A stretch of 64,000 nt of DNA from Pirellulales bacterium (GTDB lineage: Bacteria > Planctomycetota > Planctomycetia > Pirellulales > Pirellulaceae), in NCBI GenBank assembly GCA_046349895.1, contig JAXMBJ010000006.1, positions 3,092,051 to 3,156,050 on the forward strand, given 5' to 3'. Below the pieces are notes generated by a model that did no database searches, was not told the DNA's origin, and saw only the letters and a program-made list of their open reading frames with translations. Below, in pieces: positions 6,727 through 19,702 of the stretch. How positions within the stretch are numbered: position 1 is the first letter of the stretch; the number at the start of each line of letters is the position of its first letter. The translations under genes and the position numbers were made by a program.

Positions 6727-7446
6727 ATGTCGCAAGTCCCGTCGTCCGCGTCCAGTTCGAAACGACCTCGCGCCCTGGTCCAGATCTCCCTGGACGTGAC
6801 CTCTATTCCGGAGGCCCTGGAGCTGGCCGGAGCCGCCGTGCGGGCCGGAGTCGACTGGCTGGAAGCGGGGACGCCGCTGATTCTGGCCGAGGGACTGCAT
6901 GGCGTGCGGGCCTTGAAGGGGGCCTTTCCGGACAAGCCGCTGGTGGCCGACCTGAAGACGATGGACGGTGCCGGGCTGGAGGCCGAGATGATGTTTCAGG
7001 CCGGAGCCGACATGGTCGTCGTCATGGGGCAGGCTCATGATGCGAGCATCATCGAGCAGGTGAAGATGGCGAAGAAGTACGGTGGCCGGGTGATGTGCGA
7101 CGTGATGCTGTGCGACGACAAACCGGGTCGAGCCCGCCGGGCTCAGGAACTGGGCGTTGACTACATCATTGTCCACACAGGCTTCGACGAACGGAACATG
7201 ATCCCCGGCCTGAGCCCGCTGGACGATCTCCAGCCGATCCTCGACGCCGTCACCATCCCCGTCCAGGCGGTGGGGGGCCTGTCGGTCGAACAGGCGATTC
7301 AGACGTGGGAACTGGGCGCGGAGATCGTCGTCTTCGGCGCTCCGCTGGTCATCCGCAGCGACCGGTTCCAGGCGGCGGGAGACGATTTCGAGGCCCAGCT
7401 GCGGGCCATCATGGCCGAGATGGAGGGCCGCCGCGGCCAGTCTTGA
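6727..7446 (+). CDS. 3-hexulose-6-phosphate synthase family protein (HxlA/RmpA-like; OMP-decarboxylase fold)
   Basis: LVQISLDVTSIPEALEL, VADLKTMDGAG and GVDYIIVHTGFD align closely with Bacillus HxlA (LQLALDLVNIPEAIEL, VADLKIMDAG, GVDYICVHTGYD), recalled from memory. Confidence 0.8.
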   Translation: MSQVPSSASSSKRPRALVQISLDVTSIPEALELAGAAVRAGVDWLEAGTPLILAEGLHGVRALKGAFPDKPLVADLKTMDGAGLEAEMMFQAGADMVVVMGQAHDASIIEQVKMAKKYGGRVMCDVMLCDDKPGRARRAQELGVDYIIVHTGFDERNMIPGLSPLDDLQPILDAVTIPVQAVGGLSVEQAIQTWELGAEIVVFGAPLVIRSDRFQAAGDDFEAQLRAIMAEMEGRRGQS

Positions 7447-7494
7447 GCAACCTCTCTGAGCCAAACGGGCCCCACCCCAAAGAGCTATCCCGGC

Positions 7495-7560
7495 TCAAAC
7501 ACAAGTTGACCACGCGGCAGAATCGCTATAAATTGTGTGTTTGAAATAATTTAGGACCAC
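7495..7560 (+). promoter_or_regulatory. AT-rich island with TATAAAT -10-like element upstream of secA (long 5' leader)
   Basis: cgctataaattgtgtgtttgaaataatttagg stands out in GC-rich surroundings, about 230 nt upstream of the secA ATG. Confidence 0.3.
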
Positions 7561-7785
7561 AGCCAAGGCAACTTGGCGGTCGTGGTTCCGGTTGCTGGCA
7601 GCCGTCGGGTCAAGGAGTGACCGCCTGCGCGTCGGGCTGGGAGCGGACTCGGCAGTTTCGTCGGGAGACTGGCGGCAGAGGGAACGGGAAGCGTGCCGGA
7701 TCGTGAAGCCCTTGGGCTCAGTCGGGGCGTTGGTGACAGGTACTGGCCCTCGCTGGGAACGATCCTCATTCAAGAGAAGCCAATC

Positions 7786-11538
<3,753 letters not shown>

Positions 11539-12979: not shown

Positions 12980-15900
12980 CTATTTCAGAAATTCCCAATC
13001 GACGTCGGTGCGGGTTGTCAGTCGGCCGGCCACATCGAGGAGCTCATTGCGGCTGCCGATCAGCGACGCGGTGACGTTGCGCAGCGGGGCCTGTTCGAGC
13101 TCACAGCACAGGACGGTCGGCCCAGCCGACTCGTCAATCTCGACCACAGTTCCGTCGAGTTGCTCGGCGAGTATCTTGGCCAGCGCGGTGCGATCGGCAC
13201 CGGCGGGACCACACAAGAGGAATCGGACGGCTCCGCCACAGTGGGCTACCAGCGGCAGACTATCCGAGATCAACTGCGCGATGCGTTCGGGCGAATAGGT
13301 CGTCGTCGCATCGCGAGGCCGGCCGTCGACTTCGATCCGCCATTCGGCATTCACCCACCGTCGGGCGATCACTTCGGCCTCGCCCGCCAGCCAGTCCAGC
13401 TCACGCCCATTAGTCAACAGAATGCGGGTCAACGGGTGCTGAGCCTGCTGGCACCGTTCCCGCACTCGTTGCCACAGTCGATGCACGTTGCGAGTCTGTG
13501 CTGACGCGTCGCCCGACGATCCGTCGGCGGGCGAAATCCCGTTGACTCGGTCGCCGTATCGGTTGCAGAGCTGCGAGAGGGAGAGTCGCAGTCGTTCGAG
13601 CAGATCCGAGATGACGTTTTCCATCTGCAGCAGGCATGAGGCCACGCTGCGTCGCCACACCTGCGCCACACGCTGATCGAGGTAAGCGGCCAGTTGATGG
13701 ACCAGCGACTCATGCCATTCGTCGTCGGCGACTTGCTTGGGCCGCTCGGTCCAACGACCGCCGGAGAGCCATGACGTGCGGAAGTTCTCGGCAATCATCG
13801 CCGCTGCGCGAGCCTCTTCCTCCAGCGTACGTCGCAGCCCTGAGATATGACTGATCGCCGCCTGCCCCAGCATGCGGACTTCCAACAGATCTTCCTGCGG
13901 GTCATCAATCAGACTTTCCAGCGTCTGCTTGATCTGCAGGCAACGTGATTTGGTCGGCTCGGTAAGTTCCGCGTGGAGGATCTCCAGCAGACTGCGCTGG
14001 CCGGCGGGTTGAGCGACGGTGAGGCGGGTGAGTCCCATCAGGGCGTCGAAATGGGCGAAGGTGTCTTCCCAGTAACTTGAACCGAGATCGCCGGCTGATT
14101 GAGCGGCCCCGTTTTCGACCGAAGTCATGGCCAGCAACCGCAGACACTCACCGCTCTGCCCGCCAAAATGCCGATCGGCGATTTGGCGCGTCGCTTCGGC
14201 CCAGTAGCTCGTTTCGAGGTCCAGCTGCCGCATCCACACATCGCACGGATGCCGTCGTCGCATGGCCGCGCGCGGGTCGCCAGCTTCTGCGCGGCCATCG
14301 TCGCTGGAATTTGACATGGCACCCCGCGGTGAATTGCCAGAAGATGTCGGTGCGGGGGTCCCCAGCAGCATCGACCAGAGACGATAGCAGAGCTGATCGG
14401 CCTGGCGGTCGAGCGATTGATCTTGCTGGCTGCTGAGCGATACCAGACCGAAACTGCGCACCTGACGGCGAGACAGGCTCAGCCCATGGAGCTGAGTCTC
14501 CGCTGTGCGAGCCCGATCGAGGTATTCGGCCGAATTGCCGGCAATCGCTCGGTAGATGTATTCCGCCAGCTGGTTCACGCCGGTGAGCTGACCGAGCCCT
14601 TCGGGCGATTGGTGCAGATACGTGAAGTACAGATGGGAAAAGGTGGCGTGATCGGTCCACCGAGCTGCCATACCTTTCTGCGGGTCACCCGGATAGCCCG
14701 ACCCTGGCGCACTGTAGTGCTCGATCTCCTTGAGACATACGTAACTGTTGGCCGCCGCGATGTCATGCCCCTGGCTCGAGCGTCCTGGCGTATGGACCAG
14801 GATTCCGCACAAGTCGTCGGGCGGGAGACCGAGCTCATCCAAGAGTGAGCGGATCCCGTAGGCCACATCGGCGACCATGCCGCTTCCCGATCCCCCAGTC
14901 GTCGATGCGATGACAAAGACGCGCGGCCCGACCGGCGCGGCCAGCTTCAAAGTCTGCTCCGAGGGCGAGGTCGTGGAATCGGGCGAATTCACGGCGCTCA
15001 TCAGAGCAAAACGAAGCCGCTCGACGACGCTGGGCCAGTGATCGACAAGTGCCAGGCGTCCCAGCGGCCGAATCGATTCAGTCCGCAGGGATCGGGGAAT
15101 ATTGAACAGCCAACGACGGTTGATCCAGTTCAGCAGTTTGCTGGAATGGCGGCGATAGTCGGCCGTCGTCCGCAGCGGGATCGCCAAGGTCTGTTGATCG
15201 AGGAGCGTACTGGCAGCCGTACCGCGACAGGCTGAAGCCAATGAGCCGGCGTCGGTGTCGATGGCGAGCAGTTGGAGCCAGGGTGTGTCTTCGCTGGGAC
15301 CACAACCGACCTGCACTCGGGCTCGCAGTTCCTGCACGACGCGAGTGCCGAGTCCACCGAGTCCGACGACCAGCGTCGGGCGGGGCTTCGGTCGACGTTC
15401 GCTATCAGCGTGGGCTCCCTCACCGATCCCCGACTCGGGCGCCGGCAAATCACATAATTTCACAAGCTTGCCGGTATGCAGCAGCTTCGTGCGGTCCTCG
15501 TCCACTGGCAGATCTTCCAGTGGAGCCAGGACCGGAGTGGCGGTCGAGCCAGTGGTAATCAGACGGCTGGTGCTTCCCGCTCCGCTGGCGGTCCGCAAAG
15601 CTTCGACCATTTCACCACAGCTACCGAATCGGCGACCGGGCTCCTTGGCCAATGCCTTGGCAATCACCGGCTGGTCAGCCAGCGGCAGTGTCGTCAGGAC
15701 GGGAGGACTTTTCAGATGCTGAGCGGCCAGCTGAGCGGCTGTGCGGCCAGTAAATGGCGGGACGCCGGTCAGCATTTCCTGGTACACCACCGCCAGACTG
15801 TACTGGTCGCTGTTCATGTCGGGACGACCGTCGAACAGCTCGGGGGGAGCGTAGAGTGGAGTGAGCCCGGCGACCAGCGAGACATTGGTCTCTTCGAGGT

Positions 15901-16402
15901 CCTTGATCAACCCGAAGTCGGCGACTTTGATATGGCCGCCATTGAGGAGCAGGTTTTCGGGTTTGACGTCGAGATGCTGGAGTCGGAAGTTGTTGCGGAT
16001 GAAGTCGAGCGAATCGGCCGCATCGGCCAGATACCCGATCAGCTCCCGTCGTGGTATGCCCGGGAGGCCCTCCTGCCGGCAAGCCAGGAACCGTCGTTTC
16101 AGACACGATTCGGCAAATTCCGTAACGATCAGCAGTCGGTTGTCGACGACTTCAATCCGCTCAATCGACAGCAAGAACGGATGCTGGACGGTCTTGACGC
16201 GGTTGAGCGATTTCAGTTCTCGCAGCGCACATCGATCCTGCACGCCGCCGTAGATGATCTTGACCGCCTTCACCAGATCACCGGGCGCCGAGGCCTTCCA
16301 CACCTCACCGTACCCGCCGCTGCCGATAATGCGTTGCAGCACGTAGCCCGGTATCGGCTCGTCGCCTTCAGCAAATCGTCCGATGGAAGCCGTCAAGACC
16401 AT
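12980..16402 (-). CDS. Ser/Thr protein kinase fused to a tubulin/FtsZ-like GTPase-signature domain and a long helical C-terminal region (1140 aa)
   Basis: Kinase motifs: GSGGYGEVWKA, AVKII (Lys), HLDVKPENLL, VADFGL, LYAPPE (aa about 20-270). Then LVVGLGGLGTRVV (T1-like) and VIASTTGGSGSGMVADVAYG, which resembles the tubulin GGGTGSG T4 signature (aa about 340-520). ATG at 16402 verified, 5 nt after the stop of the upstream AAA+ gene. Confidence 0.85.
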   Translation of the reverse strand: MVLTASIGRFAEGDEPIPGYVLQRIIGSGGYGEVWKASAPGDLVKAVKIIYGGVQDRCALRELKSLNRVKTVQHPFLLSIERIEVVDNRLLIVTEFAESCLKRRFLACRQEGLPGIPRRELIGYLADAADSLDFIRNNFRLQHLDVKPENLLLNGGHIKVADFGLIKDLEETNVSLVAGLTPLYAPPELFDGRPDMNSDQYSLAVVYQEMLTGVPPFTGRTAAQLAAQHLKSPPVLTTLPLADQPVIAKALAKEPGRRFGSCGEMVEALRTASGAGSTSRLITTGSTATPVLAPLEDLPVDEDRTKLLHTGKLVKLCDLPAPESGIGEGAHADSERRPKPRPTLVVGLGGLGTRVVQELRARVQVGCGPSEDTPWLQLLAIDTDAGSLASACRGTAASTLLDQQTLAIPLRTTADYRRHSSKLLNWINRRWLFNIPRSLRTESIRPLGRLALVDHWPSVVERLRFALMSAVNSPDSTTSPSEQTLKLAAPVGPRVFVIASTTGGSGSGMVADVAYGIRSLLDELGLPPDDLCGILVHTPGRSSQGHDIAAANSYVCLKEIEHYSAPGSGYPGDPQKGMAARWTDHATFSHLYFTYLHQSPEGLGQLTGVNQLAEYIYRAIAGNSAEYLDRARTAETQLHGLSLSRRQVRSFGLVSLSSQQDQSLDRQADQLCYRLWSMLLGTPAPTSSGNSPRGAMSNSSDDGRAEAGDPRAAMRRRHPCDVWMRQLDLETSYWAEATRQIADRHFGGQSGECLRLLAMTSVENGAAQSAGDLGSSYWEDTFAHFDALMGLTRLTVAQPAGQRSLLEILHAELTEPTKSRCLQIKQTLESLIDDPQEDLLEVRMLGQAAISHISGLRRTLEEEARAAAMIAENFRTSWLSGGRWTERPKQVADDEWHESLVHQLAAYLDQRVAQVWRRSVASCLLQMENVISDLLERLRLSLSQLCNRYGDRVNGISPADGSSGDASAQTRNVHRLWQRVRERCQQAQHPLTRILLTNGRELDWLAGEAEVIARRWVNAEWRIEVDGRPRDATTTYSPERIAQLISDSLPLVAHCGGAVRFLLCGPAGADRTALAKILAEQLDGTVVEIDESAGPTVLCCELEQAPLRNVTASLIGSRNELLDVAGRLTTRTDVDWEFLK

Positions 16403-16407
16403 ACGGG

Positions 16408-17841
16408 TTACTGCTCAACAGGGATGTTCATCGAAGAGCCGGTAGTTGAGTCGAACACGATTGTGGCCGGCGTTGCGCGCGGACCGGTCGTTACGGCCGG
16501 ATTGGCAACCAGTCCGGGCCGACGCAAGACCAGAGTGAAATAACTCTGCGCAATGCGGTCGAAGATCTCGGGAGTCATCCGCAGCGGCAGATCGTGATAG
16601 ACGCAGTAGTTCTTGATCTGAGCCAGGATGTCGCGCGGGTGGCACCGCCGCAGCGGGCGACCTGCCTGACGGTAATGTCGAGCCAGGAGATGTTCGACAG
16701 CCGAGTGGTTGTACTCGAACCCTAACCCCTCCGCATAAATGCGAAACAGCTGATGGAATTCTTCCTCGCTGGGGTCAACGATCTCAATCTTGTACGGAAT
16801 CCGCCGCAGGAAGGCCTCGTCCACCAGATCACTGGGCTCCAGATTGGTCGAGAAAATGATCAGCTGTTCGAAGGGGACCTGAATCTTCTTGCCGGTCGAC
16901 AAGGTCAGGAAATCGTGCCGATTCTCCAGCGGGATGATCCAGCGATTCAGCAGCTCGGCCGGCGCCACACGCTGACGGCCGAAGTCGTCGATCAGCAGGC
17001 AGCCACCGTTGCTCTTCAATTGCAACGGCGCCTCGCTGAGGTTGCTGCGCGGATCATGCCGGATCTCCAACGCATCCATCGTCAGTTCACCGCCGACCAC
17101 CACCGTGGGACGTTTGATGCGCACCCACCTCCGGTCGTAGTCCTGAATCCGCAGCTTCGCCGACGCCGACATCTCCACTTCCTGGTGATATGACGTATCG
17201 AACAGCTTGATCAACTGCCCATCGTCCGACACCACCCTGGGAATCCAGATCTCCTGCCCGAAGCAGACCGTCAGGCGTCGAGCCAGGGTCGATTTGCCAT
17301 TGCCCGGAGCTCCATAAAGGAACATCCCGGCACCCGAGTTCACAGCGGGGCCCAGCAACTCGAACAGCTGAGCGTCCACAGAGACGCCCTGCAGTGCGGC
17401 TTCCAGCTGCTCGCGCCGCACCGTCTCGGCGCTGATCGCCTGAGCTTCGACGGAAATCACATAGTCCATCAACGGCACAGGAGCCGGCCCCACGTAACTG
17501 CTGGCCCGCTGAAAACTCTGAGCATACTGGCGACCGCGTTCGGTCAACGAGTAGTAGTAGTCGTTGAACGGAGCCGATCCGGCGTGGACGATTACCTGAC
17601 GCGTCCGGAGACTGCCGAGCATTTTCTCGGTGATCTGGAAGGGGAGCGCCAGCTGAGCAGAGAGCTTGCGACCGCTGCACGTTCCGCCCACCAGGAGATG
17701 TTTGCAAACGAGGGACTCGACCAGGGACTCTTCGAGCCCGGTTTCGGCCAGTGTTTTCGGTTCTGCCGGCCAGAACGTTTCGTCGGCCAGCAGCGACGTC
17801 AACAGACCATGGTCGATCTCTTGTGTGTCGATTACGGTCAT
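16408..17841 (-). CDS. AAA+ ATPase (MoxR/AAA_5-like) with N-terminal winged-helix-like region
   Basis: Walker A GAPGNGKSTLARRL, Walker B CLLIDDFGRQ, sensor-1 IIFSTNLEP. ATG at 17841 verified (MTVIDTQ). Confidence 0.8.
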   Translation of the reverse strand: MTVIDTQEIDHGLLTSLLADETFWPAEPKTLAETGLEESLVESLVCKHLLVGGTCSGRKLSAQLALPFQITEKMLGSLRTRQVIVHAGSAPFNDYYYSLTERGRQYAQSFQRASSYVGPAPVPLMDYVISVEAQAISAETVRREQLEAALQGVSVDAQLFELLGPAVNSGAGMFLYGAPGNGKSTLARRLTVCFGQEIWIPRVVSDDGQLIKLFDTSYHQEVEMSASAKLRIQDYDRRWVRIKRPTVVVGGELTMDALEIRHDPRSNLSEAPLQLKSNGGCLLIDDFGRQRVAPAELLNRWIIPLENRHDFLTLSTGKKIQVPFEQLIIFSTNLEPSDLVDEAFLRRIPYKIEIVDPSEEEFHQLFRIYAEGLGFEYNHSAVEHLLARHYRQAGRPLRRCHPRDILAQIKNYCVYHDLPLRMTPEIFDRIAQSYFTLVLRRPGLVANPAVTTGPRATPATIVFDSTTGSSMNIPVEQ

Positions 17842-18113
17842 GGAAGACCTCAACTTTCCAGTGGCATCCTGCCCTGACGCATGCCCCGCGAGAACGAGGC
17901 AAACCAGCCAATTGTAGGTCAGAATCCACGATGTTCGGCCCAGATCTTCTCCCCCCACGCCCACCACTTATTGCCGACGTCGGAACACTTCGATCGCGTC
18001 AATCGGTACGAACCACACGACCGGTACAAGCCGGCCGCCGTGGGTCAAATCGACAGCCCATCTGCGATCGCGGCGCACATGGGCAAAATCCGAACTAGAC
18101 TTCCCCCGGGAAC

Positions 18114-19322
18114 GTGAGTGTTGGATCGGCTCCTGCGCGATGGCAATGTATGACCGGTTACCCTGCCCTCGAAACTCAACATGGTTCGGCGAACGAACAC
18201 CCTCGCGGAAATAGCTCGGGTGTACGCTCCGGCGTGACCGATTACGGCCACTGTTGGGTCTGGTTCCTGTCAGGCCAGACTGCGGAAACGGGGACCGTGC
18301 GCCATATTCCCATCCACGCCAGCCCTTTTGTGATCGGTCGCCGCAACGAAACAACCCTCTGTCTGCCCAGCCCCACCGTCTCAGGACTACACGCCGAGAT
18401 CGTCGAACTGGGCGATCAGCTCTATCTGCGAGATCTGAACAGCACCAACGGGACCTACGTCAACGGCCAACGGATTCGCGAGCCGATCGCACTGCAACCA
18501 GATGACCTGGTGCAGATCGCCAGTTTCGCGTTCCGGGTCAGCCGGCAATCGGCCGACGCCAGCGCCAAGACCGTGGCAGAGAACGTCTGCGACAAGGCAC
18601 TGGCTCTAGTTCAATTCGACAAGATGATGACCGAGCGAGCCGTCCTCCCCTTCTACCAGCCCATTATCGATCTGCAGTCGGGGACCACTATCGCTTTTGA
18701 AGTCCTGGGACGCAGCCCCTTCTTTGGCCTGGAAACCCCGGCCGCCATGTTCTACGCCGCCTCGCAGCTCGATCTGGAAGTTGAGCTGAGCAACATGTTT
18801 CGGTGGGAGGGGATCAGCCTCTGCGCGGCTGTCGCCCCCCAGATCCACCTCTTCGTCAACACGCACCCGGCCGAAATGCAGAAAGAAGGCCTGGTGCAAT
18901 CGATGCGAGCCGTGCGGGAGGTGAGCCCCGAGCAGCCCATTACGCTGGAACTGCACGAAGCGGCCGTCACCGACGCTCCTGCCATCAGCCGCCTCCGCAA
19001 TGAACTGGCCGCCATCGACGTCAAACTGGCCTACGACGACTTCGGCGCCGGCCAGACACGCCTCGTCGAACTGATCGAAGTCCGACCCGACTACCTGAAG
19101 TTCGACATGAACTTGATCCGCGATATCGACCGGGCCGGCGAACAGCGTCAGCGAATGCTCGCCACCTTGGTTCAGATGACCCGCGAACTGGGAATCGCCG
19201 CTATCGCCGAAGGGGTCGAAACCCCAGGCGAAGCCGACACCTGCCGCCAGCTCGGCTTCGACCTCGGCCAAGGTTTCCATTTCGGCTGGCCCGCGCCCAT
19301 CACCTACCTCGCCCGACGCTAG
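18114..19322 (+). CDS. FHA domain-EAL domain protein (putative c-di-GMP phosphodiesterase)
   Basis: FHA: FVIGRRNETTLCL...SGLHAEI...NSTNGTYVNG. EAL domain: FEVLGR (EVL variant), DDFGAGQT, YLKFDMNLIRD, AEGVET, QGFHFGWP. GTG at 18114, or ATG at 18150. Confidence 0.8.
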   Translation: MSVGSAPARWQCMTGYPALETQHGSANEHPRGNSSGVRSGVTDYGHCWVWFLSGQTAETGTVRHIPIHASPFVIGRRNETTLCLPSPTVSGLHAEIVELGDQLYLRDLNSTNGTYVNGQRIREPIALQPDDLVQIASFAFRVSRQSADASAKTVAENVCDKALALVQFDKMMTERAVLPFYQPIIDLQSGTTIAFEVLGRSPFFGLETPAAMFYAASQLDLEVELSNMFRWEGISLCAAVAPQIHLFVNTHPAEMQKEGLVQSMRAVREVSPEQPITLELHEAAVTDAPAISRLRNELAAIDVKLAYDDFGAGQTRLVELIEVRPDYLKFDMNLIRDIDRAGEQRQRMLATLVQMTRELGIAAIAEGVETPGEADTCRQLGFDLGQGFHFGWPAPITYLARR

Positions 19323-19337
19323 ACGACGCCTCTTCCT

Positions 19338-19702
19338 CCCTTGTGGTGCGGGCGTCTCGCCTGCCTCGCGTCTCGCCTGCCTCCGCGCCTCCGCGTCTCT
19401 ACTCCTCCCTTGTGGTGCGGGCGTCTCGCCTGCCTCCGCGTCTCCGCGTCTCTCTTCCTCCCTTGTGGTGCGGGCGTCTCGCCTGCCTCGCGTCTCTCTT
19501 CCTCCTCCTCCTGCTCCTTTCTATGCCCCTTTCCGAAGCTCCTCTTTCTTCAGTTGCCAGACAACTTCTGGCCAGGAGAATCCCCCAACAGCTGCCAGAT
19601 CCAGGCAGGCGGGACGCCTGCACCACAATACAAAGGCAGGCGGGACCCCTGCACCACAATACAAAGGCAGGCGGGACGCCTGCACCACAATGTGTGGGCA
19701 GG
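19338..19702. repeat. Cluster of palindromic GGCAGGCGGGACGCCYGCACCACAA-type repeats: three copies in one orientation (19338-19500), then three tandem 31-bp copies in the opposite orientation (19614-19706)
   Basis: Direct reading of the sequence. Each unit holds a short hairpin (CAGGCG-GGA-CGCCTG). The same unit recurs at 56201-56228 and 57348-57512. Located between convergent genes. Confidence 0.8.

Follow-up and report, generated by a model that had tools for sequence, protein, structure and literature searches.

A kinase-fused FtsZl1 (Tubulin_2) protein of a planctomycete, its AAA+ partner, and a divergent FHA-EAL gene

A 64,000-nucleotide (nt) stretch of DNA from a Pirellulales bacterium (contig JAXMBJ010000006.1; the whole stretch is called the window here) carries on its reverse strand a gene for an AAA+ ATPase, followed at once by a gene for a Ser/Thr protein kinase fused to a domain of the FtsZl1 (Pfam Tubulin_2) family, with a gene for an FHA-EAL protein running divergently from the pair (Table 1). 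Together, the FHA-EAL gene and the AAA+ and kinase-FtsZl1 genes in that order constitute a conserved three-gene module, and the glycine-rich region of the fusion protein is a tubulin/FtsZ-fold domain and not a generic Rossmann or P-loop fold.

Table 1. Features of the kinase-FtsZl1 locus in window coordinates (aa, amino acids; ORF, open reading frame)
Feature	Position	Strand	Description
Ser/Thr kinase-FtsZl1 (Tubulin_2) fusion gene	12980..16402	-	1140 aa; ORF call with Pfam Pkinase and Tubulin_2
Hanks-type kinase domain, non-RD (HLD)	15593..16345	-	aa 20-270; Pfam Pkinase, PknB-type PDB matches
Ser/Thr/Pro-rich linker	15383..15592	-	aa 271-340; S+T 20%, P 10%; no domain match
Tubulin/FtsZ-fold nucleotide-binding domain	14333..15382	-	aa 341-690; T1 GLGGLG, T2 DTD, T4 TGGSGSG
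C-terminal region of the fusion and stop codon	12980..14332	-	aa 691-1140, ~450 aa, poorly conserved
AAA+ ATPase gene	16408..17841	-	477 aa: winged helix, AAA+ core, disordered tail aa 443-477
Spacer from AAA+ stop (TAA) to kinase ATG	16403..16407	-	5 nt
Divergent FHA-EAL gene	18114..19322	+	FHA aa 73-135, EAL aa 171-391
Divergent intergenic region, presumed shared promoter region	17842..18113	.	Geometry between AAA+/kinase pair and FHA-EAL

The fusion protein and its AAA+ neighbor

Pfam Tubulin_2 (PF13809) matched aa 344 to 626 of the fusion protein over profile positions 1 to 297 of 356, with an E value of 1.7e-28 and a score of 100.3 bits, the gathering threshold being 27. The protein contains two glycine-rich motifs, LVVGLGGLGTRVV at aa 344 and IASTTGGSGSGMVADVAYG at aa 498. 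In an alignment of 24 tubulin-like domains, the T1 glycine G20 is invariant and G21 is present in at least 90% of the sequences, DTD follows strand 2, and the T4 consensus is SGGTGSG, with G174, G175, G177, and G179 invariant. The T4 motif in the window, TGGSGSG, is a Thr-to-Ser variant that misses the strict PROSITE pattern and keeps all of the glycines. The alignment also contains a family-specific invariant block, W..RRW.(F/Y)NIPRS..T...RPLGRLA.VD. Since no FtsZl1 structure has been solved, we relied on fold comparison: an AlphaFold (AF2) model of aa 330 to 700 (predicted template modeling score, 0.77) has the S1-S6/H1-H7 layout of the superfamily. A PDB profile search with the alignment found nothing significant, its sole match being CetZ at the T4 motif (E value of 5.8), and a comparison of the alignment with the single sequence of Escherichia coli FtsZ by hhalign gave a weak local match (E value of 0.006, probability of 6%) that was used for registration of T1 and T2 only. 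The initial annotation, made from the sequence alone, had proposed a tubulin/FtsZ-like GTPase-signature domain here, and the Tubulin_2 match, the T1, T2, and T4 motifs, and the fold of the model agree in bearing this out; an unrelated Rossmann or P-loop NTPase, which would have spoken against the proposal, was not what the searches returned.

The domain shares with FtsZ, CetZ, tubulin, and TubZ the N-terminal fold (S1-S6 and H1-H7) and the T1 (GGxG), T2 [(N/D)TD], and T4 (GGTGSG-type) motifs. It differs from them in its low identity (9 to 18%), in its large family-specific inserts, including the invariant RRW.YNIPRS...RPLGRLA block, in the kinase and the 450-aa tail attached to it, and in showing no sign of a T7 synergy loop or of a C-terminal domain that activates the GTPase. 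With Pfam, neither Tubulin_C nor FtsZ_C matched the fusion protein even at an E value of ≤1, and the AF2 model of aa 330 to 700 shows neither a T7 loop nor a β-rich C-terminal domain and ends in helices. Of the ∼540 aa beyond the T4 motif, which the initial annotation had predicted to be helical, the model covers the part up to aa 700. The region from aa 691 to 1140 has no Pfam match; it is rich in A, L, E, R, and Q (together 47%), and its tblastn identity to homologues is 22 to 41%, mostly over the last ∼100 aa.

The N-terminal part of the protein is a complete Hanks-type kinase core, as had been annotated. All of the motifs quoted at the time are in place (G-loop GSGGYGEVWKA at aa 27, AVK at aa 46, HLDVKPEN at aa 143, DFG at aa 162, and APPE at aa 185), and Pfam Pkinase matched aa 20 to 232 above its cutoff (E value of 3e-26; 92.7 versus 31.7 bits). 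The best PDB sequence matches are PknB, PknA, StkP, and relatives (E values of 1e-20 to 1e-24). The catalytic loop has HLD instead of HRD (positions 15965 to 15973; aa 144 to 146), the mark of a non-RD kinase, which suggests that phosphorylation of the activation loop may not be needed. HLD is found in 105 of 120 homologues and DFG in 107 of 120. By analogy with PknB-type kinases, the linker that follows (aa 271 to 340) is a candidate segment for autophosphorylation and FHA docking.

The junction between the AAA+ and kinase genes reads CAG TAA cccgt ATG, in agreement with the 5-nt gap noted initially. It is identical in the closest relative (locus L092, a Logan contig), which has the same gene arrangement as the window and a synonymous TTG-to-TTA change in kinase codon 3. 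Based on the junction and the synonymous change, we regard the kinase start at ATG 16402 as real, although the gene caller had picked a later start for L092. For the AAA+ gene, the longest ORF reaches back to GTG 17967; we placed the start at ATG 17841 because GAGG sits 6 nt 5′ of it and homologue alignments begin at query residue 1. No terminator-like site was seen between the two genes in a promoter and terminator scan whose results were at chance level, and a sigma-70 consensus scan of the divergent intergenic region was likewise at chance level and uninformative.

The gene upstream of the kinase encodes an AAA+ ATPase, as first proposed, with Walker A and B motifs, sensor, Arg finger, core, and lid. 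The corresponding alignment columns are invariant or nearly so (Walker A G177/G180/G182/K183, Walker B D285/D286, sensor-1 N333, and Arg R346/R347). The protein belongs to a large unnamed family of 3,516 representative clusters and is 64 to 71% identical to the best 120 of more than 8,000 matches. No Pfam or NCBIfam model reached its cutoff on it, and the family profile matched AAA+ proteins in the PDB at E values of 5e-15 to 1e-10. An AlphaFold model (predicted local distance difference test score, 89) has an N-terminal winged helix, a β-rich insert between the two Walker motifs, a hairpin ahead of the sensor-1 strand, and a helical lid; the 8% of the protein that homologues leave uncovered is a disordered, nonconserved C-terminal tail. 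Structural comparison gave scores of 17.6 for Pyrococcus furiosus Q8U0N8 (an uncharacterized hexamer, PDB 8p49, seen by cryo-electron microscopy as a hexameric ring with a flexible N-domain), 16.3 for the archaeal LonB ATPase, ∼14 for bacterial enhancer-binding proteins (bEBPs) of the FleQ, DmpR, and NtrC type, ∼13.4 for the MoxR-type proteins CbbQ and NorQ, and ∼12.4 for Vps4 and spastin. The model thus places the ATPase in the pre-sensor-1-hairpin group (LonB/bEBP/MoxR-like). It differs from LonB, bEBPs, MoxR proteins, and Q8U0N8 in lacking a protease domain, a sigma-54-interacting GAFTGA loop, and a C-terminal helix-turn-helix, and in its N-terminal domain, a winged helix structurally matched by MarR-like proteins. 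The polymer-severing classic clade (spastin, katanin, and Vps4) was also considered and is ruled out by the hairpin and by the closer affinity to LonB, bEBPs, and MoxR proteins.

Some relatives of the ATPase are fused to an N-terminal FHA (P0292 and P0295) or HDOD (P0242) domain, and such "Rosetta-stone" fusions tie the AAA+ family to phospho-Thr and second-messenger signaling. The contigs of distant relatives were mostly too short for their gene contexts to be used. At one locus (L082, positions 7001 to 10926), the gene of a distant relative (P0268; 41% identity) overlaps by 1 nt the gene after it, which encodes an 892-aa radical-SAM/SPASM-TPR protein, and a large kinase is encoded 4 kb downstream.

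A conserved three-gene module and its paralogous form

Relatives of the fusion protein are encoded in 523 stretches of species-representative genomes. From these, 80 loci were retrieved as a gene-context sample and surveyed by tblastn with the window proteins; proportions below refer to the 65 loci with enough upstream sequence to be assessed, unless stated otherwise. The AAA+ gene lies directly upstream of the kinase-tubulin gene on the same strand at 39 of the 65 loci and 0.4 to 6 kb upstream at another 11, so that it is within 6 kb at 50; at the remaining 15, no AAA+ gene was found in the upstream range examined. An FHA-EAL-type gene is present at 63 of the 65. Among the 39 loci with an adjacent AAA+ gene, the FHA-EAL gene is divergent in 33 (type A, the arrangement of the window) and downstream in 5 (type C, Bythopirellula). 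The SecA and KdtA genes that flank the module in the window recur at only 1 of the 80 loci. The initial annotation had suggested a look at the conservation of the AAA+/kinase pair across Planctomycetota but overlooked its most conserved partner, which is the divergent FHA-EAL gene.

In a neighbor-joining tree, the AAA+ proteins split by locus type as the tubulin domains do, with the same two outliers (L056 and L079); these are distance trees without bootstraps, in which the separation of type A from types B and C is suggestive only and the branch of the window protein is long. Where a genome has two kinase-tubulin paralogues, it also has a pair of AAA+ proteins (61.5% and 63.9% identical), each of which groups with its own locus type. 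The congruence of the trees and the paired copies suggest that the two genes were duplicated together, and with the frequency of their adjacency they mark the pair as a conserved, coevolving unit.

The FHA-EAL protein matched Pfam FHA (E value of 5e-19) and EAL (E value of 5e-37). In the window protein, all of the EAL catalytic residues (E..L.R, N, ExxE, DD, KxD, EGVE, and Q) and the phosphothreonine-binding R/S/H/N residues of the FHA domain are present. The EAL catalytic positions are kept in 36 to 37 of 37 type A and C orthologues, most of them being fully invariant, and the FHA residues do not vary in any of 60 orthologues, including the 37 of the window type. From these residues, the protein is predicted to be an active cyclic di-GMP (c-di-GMP) phosphodiesterase. 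Its longest ORF, of 402 aa, opens with GTG; alignments with homologues begin only near aa 49, and the gene of the closest relative was called at 390 aa, which makes ATG 18150 the likelier start.

At type B loci, the gene immediately upstream of the kinase gene is FHA-EAL-like. The EAL domain it encodes is degenerate in 23 paralogues (N to A, DD to DG, KxD to KxA, and EGVE to TxxD), while the FHA residues are still invariant; judging by the degenerate residues, the protein probably senses c-di-GMP and is not an enzyme. A gene for a (REC-)CBS-GGDEF protein is found divergently upstream in ∼21 type B loci, with an AAA+ gene often beyond it. This paralogous module, with AAA+, a divergent (REC-)CBS-GGDEF cyclase, degenerate FHA-EAL, and kinase-Tubulin_2, occurs at L054 (4585 to 12478), L085 (6001 to 13329), and ∼21 other type B loci. 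Both module types can occur within a single genome (L054 with L059, and L051 with L053).

The genes around the module in the window encode SecA, KdtA, a 3-keto-disaccharide hydrolase-domain protein, and a major facilitator superfamily transporter, besides the AAA+ and FHA-EAL proteins. The longest ORF of the KdtA-like transferase (from GTG 11481) overlaps the 3′ end of the SecA gene (7693 to 11538) by 58 nt, and its actual start probably lies further downstream. Positions 19330 to 19702, which separate the FHA-EAL gene from the convergent 3-keto-disaccharide-hydrolase-domain gene, form an intergenic region packed with repeats, which give rise to spurious ORFs: three direct copies of a 26-nt core, TTGTGGTGCGGGCGTCTCGCCTGCCT, begin at 19341, 19410, and 19463, and three reverse-complement copies, 88 to 92% complementary, follow at 19603, 19634, and 19665 with a spacing of 31 nt. 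The region looks like a REP (repetitive extragenic palindromic)- or MITE (miniature inverted-repeat transposable element)-like element or a multihairpin terminator.

The planctomycetal branch of FtsZl1

FtsZl1 was defined by Makarova and Koonin (2010; PMC2875224), who noted that planctomycete members have an N-terminal protein kinase domain and listed RB10367, Psta_0486, a Blastopirellula protein, and two Gemmata proteins, with FHA or FHA-EAL neighbors in a supplementary table. The observation of the kinase was repeated by Santana-Molina et al. (2023; PMC9871819), in whose work FtsZ-like corresponds to Pfam Tubulin_2. The initial annotation knew of no characterized kinase-tubulin fusion; the fusion as such had thus been described twice, and the other half of the remark stands, as our literature search found no functional or experimental study of FtsZl1/Tubulin_2. 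Annotated homologues already number in the hundreds; Pkinase and Tubulin_2 are combined in more than 100 protein-database clusters, several of which NCBI names "tubulin-like domain-containing protein".

The window protein is 95% and 54% identical to two metagenomic relatives and 26 to 45% identical to the other matches listed. The matches to it and to the AAA+ protein bear out the planctomycete-like organism first suspected; 79 of the 80 retrieved loci come from planctomycetal metagenome-assembled genomes, and the exception, L067 (JABMRB010000618.1), labeled Candidatus Nealsonbacteria, is probably a misbinned contig. With the planctomycetal subgroup of FtsZl1 (RB10367 of Rhodopirellula baltica and Psta_0486 of Pirellula staleyi), the protein shares the order of kinase, divergent FtsZ-like domain, and long C-terminal extension, as well as inserts between T1 and T4, an FHA(-EAL) neighbor, and the phylum. 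These sequence comparisons show it to be a divergent orthologue within the planctomycetal kinase-bearing branch of FtsZl1/Tubulin_2. Other FtsZl1 operons have vWA, diverged GTPase, and OmpA-like partners, none of which is among the neighbors checked in the window, and planctomycete FtsZl1 loci are listed with FHA neighbors rather than vWA (PMC2875224). That paper has neither the AAA+ partner nor the split into active and degenerate EAL domains nor the GGDEF gene of the paralogous loci, and the conserved AAA+ coupling, the EAL split, and the GGDEF-bearing paralogue appear to be unreported in the literature searched.

A proposed signaling scaffold and its alternatives

PknB-type kinases are known to have autophosphorylated linkers and to pair with FHA proteins. 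The mycobacterial pknB operon with FhaA/FhaB and the pair of PknB and GarA have in common with the window a Hanks core, a Ser/Thr-rich linker, and a linked FHA protein; the window system differs in having no transmembrane or PASTA sensor, in its non-RD (HLD) loop, in its tubulin-fold C-terminal module, and in that the FHA protein carries an EAL phosphodiesterase. We favor, with a probability of roughly 0.5, a reading of the module as a cytoplasmic signaling scaffold linked to GTP, phospho-Thr, and c-di-GMP. All three proteins would be soluble and cytoplasmic, and no transmembrane segment was found in any of them. With the kinase joined to a tubulin-fold domain that would bind GTP and to a long C-terminal region, the fusion protein would act as a nucleotide-dependent self-associating scaffold or a GTP sensor rather than as a canonical protofilament former. 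It would phosphorylate Thr residues, most plausibly within its own Ser/Thr-rich linker, and these sites would be read by the FHA domain of the neighboring, presumably active EAL phosphodiesterase. Ser/Thr phosphorylation and GTP state might thereby be coupled to local c-di-GMP hydrolysis, while the putatively cotranscribed and hexameric AAA+ protein would act on the assembly by loading, remodeling, or turnover.

Several points weigh against this interpretation. Binding of GTP, docking of the FHA domain, and the activities of the kinase and EAL domains are predictions from conserved residues, and that the AAA+ and kinase genes form an operon is something we infer from the 5-nt spacing and the conservation of the pair only. 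The region from aa 691 to 1140 could hide an assembly or activation domain or a nonhomologous substitute for T7 and the tubulin C-terminal domain. The ATPase is conserved at ∼65%, against 30 to 45% for its partner; it stands alone in 2 of 4 close orthologues sampled, which have no kinase-tubulin gene within 6 kb; and at L082 its family serves another partner outside the planctomycete module. These three observations indicate that it may have a broader or independent role, and its winged helix and likeness to bEBP, MCM, and RuvB-type proteins would also fit a DNA-related function. Taken further, they lead to a reading that we consider unlikely, in which the AAA+ protein is an independent housekeeping ATPase of planctomycetes, possibly directed at DNA or protein through its winged helix, and only FHA-EAL and kinase-FtsZl1 form the functional unit. 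The 64 to 71% identity across the phylum, the stand-alone orthologues, the 15 of 65 loci with no AAA+ gene in the upstream sequence examined, and the radical-SAM/SPASM-TPR genes adjoining distant relatives all fit such a role. On the other side stand an adjacent AAA+ gene at 39 of 65 loci, or one no more than 6 kb away at 50, where other flanks are unconserved, the short gap found here, congruent trees with both genes apparently duplicated together within genomes, and the FHA-AAA+ fusions that tie the family to phospho-Thr signaling.

The initial annotation had favored a filament-forming or membrane-remodeling GTPase, regulated by the kinase and assisted by the ATPase. On this cytoskeletal reading, the protein might even stand in for FtsZ in FtsZ-less Planctomycetes, with the kinase regulating polymers and the AAA+ protein disassembling them. 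The genuine tubulin/FtsZ fold with conserved T1, T2, and T4, the wide and vertically inherited distribution of the family in Planctomycetota (523 genome stretches), the coevolving AAA+ partner, and the membrane remodeling proposed for FtsZl1 systems generally (PMC2875224) are in keeping with it. We nevertheless hold it to be doubtful and speculative, since the canonical T7 and C-terminal domain (up to aa 700), any transmembrane or membrane-targeting segment, and vWA, OmpA, and GTPase genes among the checked neighbors are all missing and the ATPase is not of the spastin/katanin/Vps4 type; direct support for the claim was not obtained. In addition, T6-H7 could not be identified in FtsZl1, which may form filaments by a novel mechanism or may form none, and FtsZl1 coexists with FtsZ in other phyla (PMC2875224). 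The protein also evolves fast (30 to 45% identity), unlike core division proteins, and has two paralogues in some genomes. The lack of an ftsZ gene in the window, initially noted as consistent with planctomycete-like biology, carries no weight, being an absence within 64 kb. A more elaborate version, less probable still, would make the module a tubulin-superfamily cytoskeletal switch specific to FtsZ-less Planctomycetes, with GTP-dependent assembly at a noncanonical interface, to which the RRW.YNIPRS...RPLGRLA block or the C-terminal region would contribute instead of T7, gating by autophosphorylation and local c-di-GMP, resetting by the AAA+ hexamer, and a role in budding, division, or polar organization.

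Matches to defense models raised the further idea of an antiphage or conflict system built from a PD-T4-6/Stk2-like kinase and an IetA-like ATPase. PADLOC kinase models hit the kinase domain (PD-T4-6, E value of 7.5e-35; mad6, E value of 6.6e-34), IetA models weakly hit ∼50 aa of the AAA+ protein (E value of 6e-8), and NCBIfam IteA gave an E value of 7.6e-7 far below its cutoff (28.6 versus 510 bits). We rejected this explanation as highly improbable: the matches do not extend beyond the generic core of the kinase and a short AAA motif and fall far below cutoffs, the window has no IetS protease or other defense partner nearby, no relatives were found in viral contigs, and the family is not patchy but vertically inherited throughout the phylum, with the housekeeping genes for SecA and KdtA alongside.

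To our knowledge, Planctomycetes divide without FtsZ, and the kinase-fused FtsZl1 proteins are the only members of the tubulin superfamily there. The locus described here does not reveal a new kind of protein but sharpens the problem of their function, which dates from 2010. The tubulin-like domain is now confirmed at the level of the fold, and the canonical polymerization apparatus of T7 and the C-terminal domain is seen to be missing. The fusion protein is further placed in a coevolving set with FHA-EAL and a winged-helix AAA+ protein, alongside a paralogous set with a degenerate EAL domain and a GGDEF cyclase. These gene sets link Ser/Thr phosphorylation, GTP, and c-di-GMP and thereby provide testable hypotheses and genetic targets in tractable planctomycetes.

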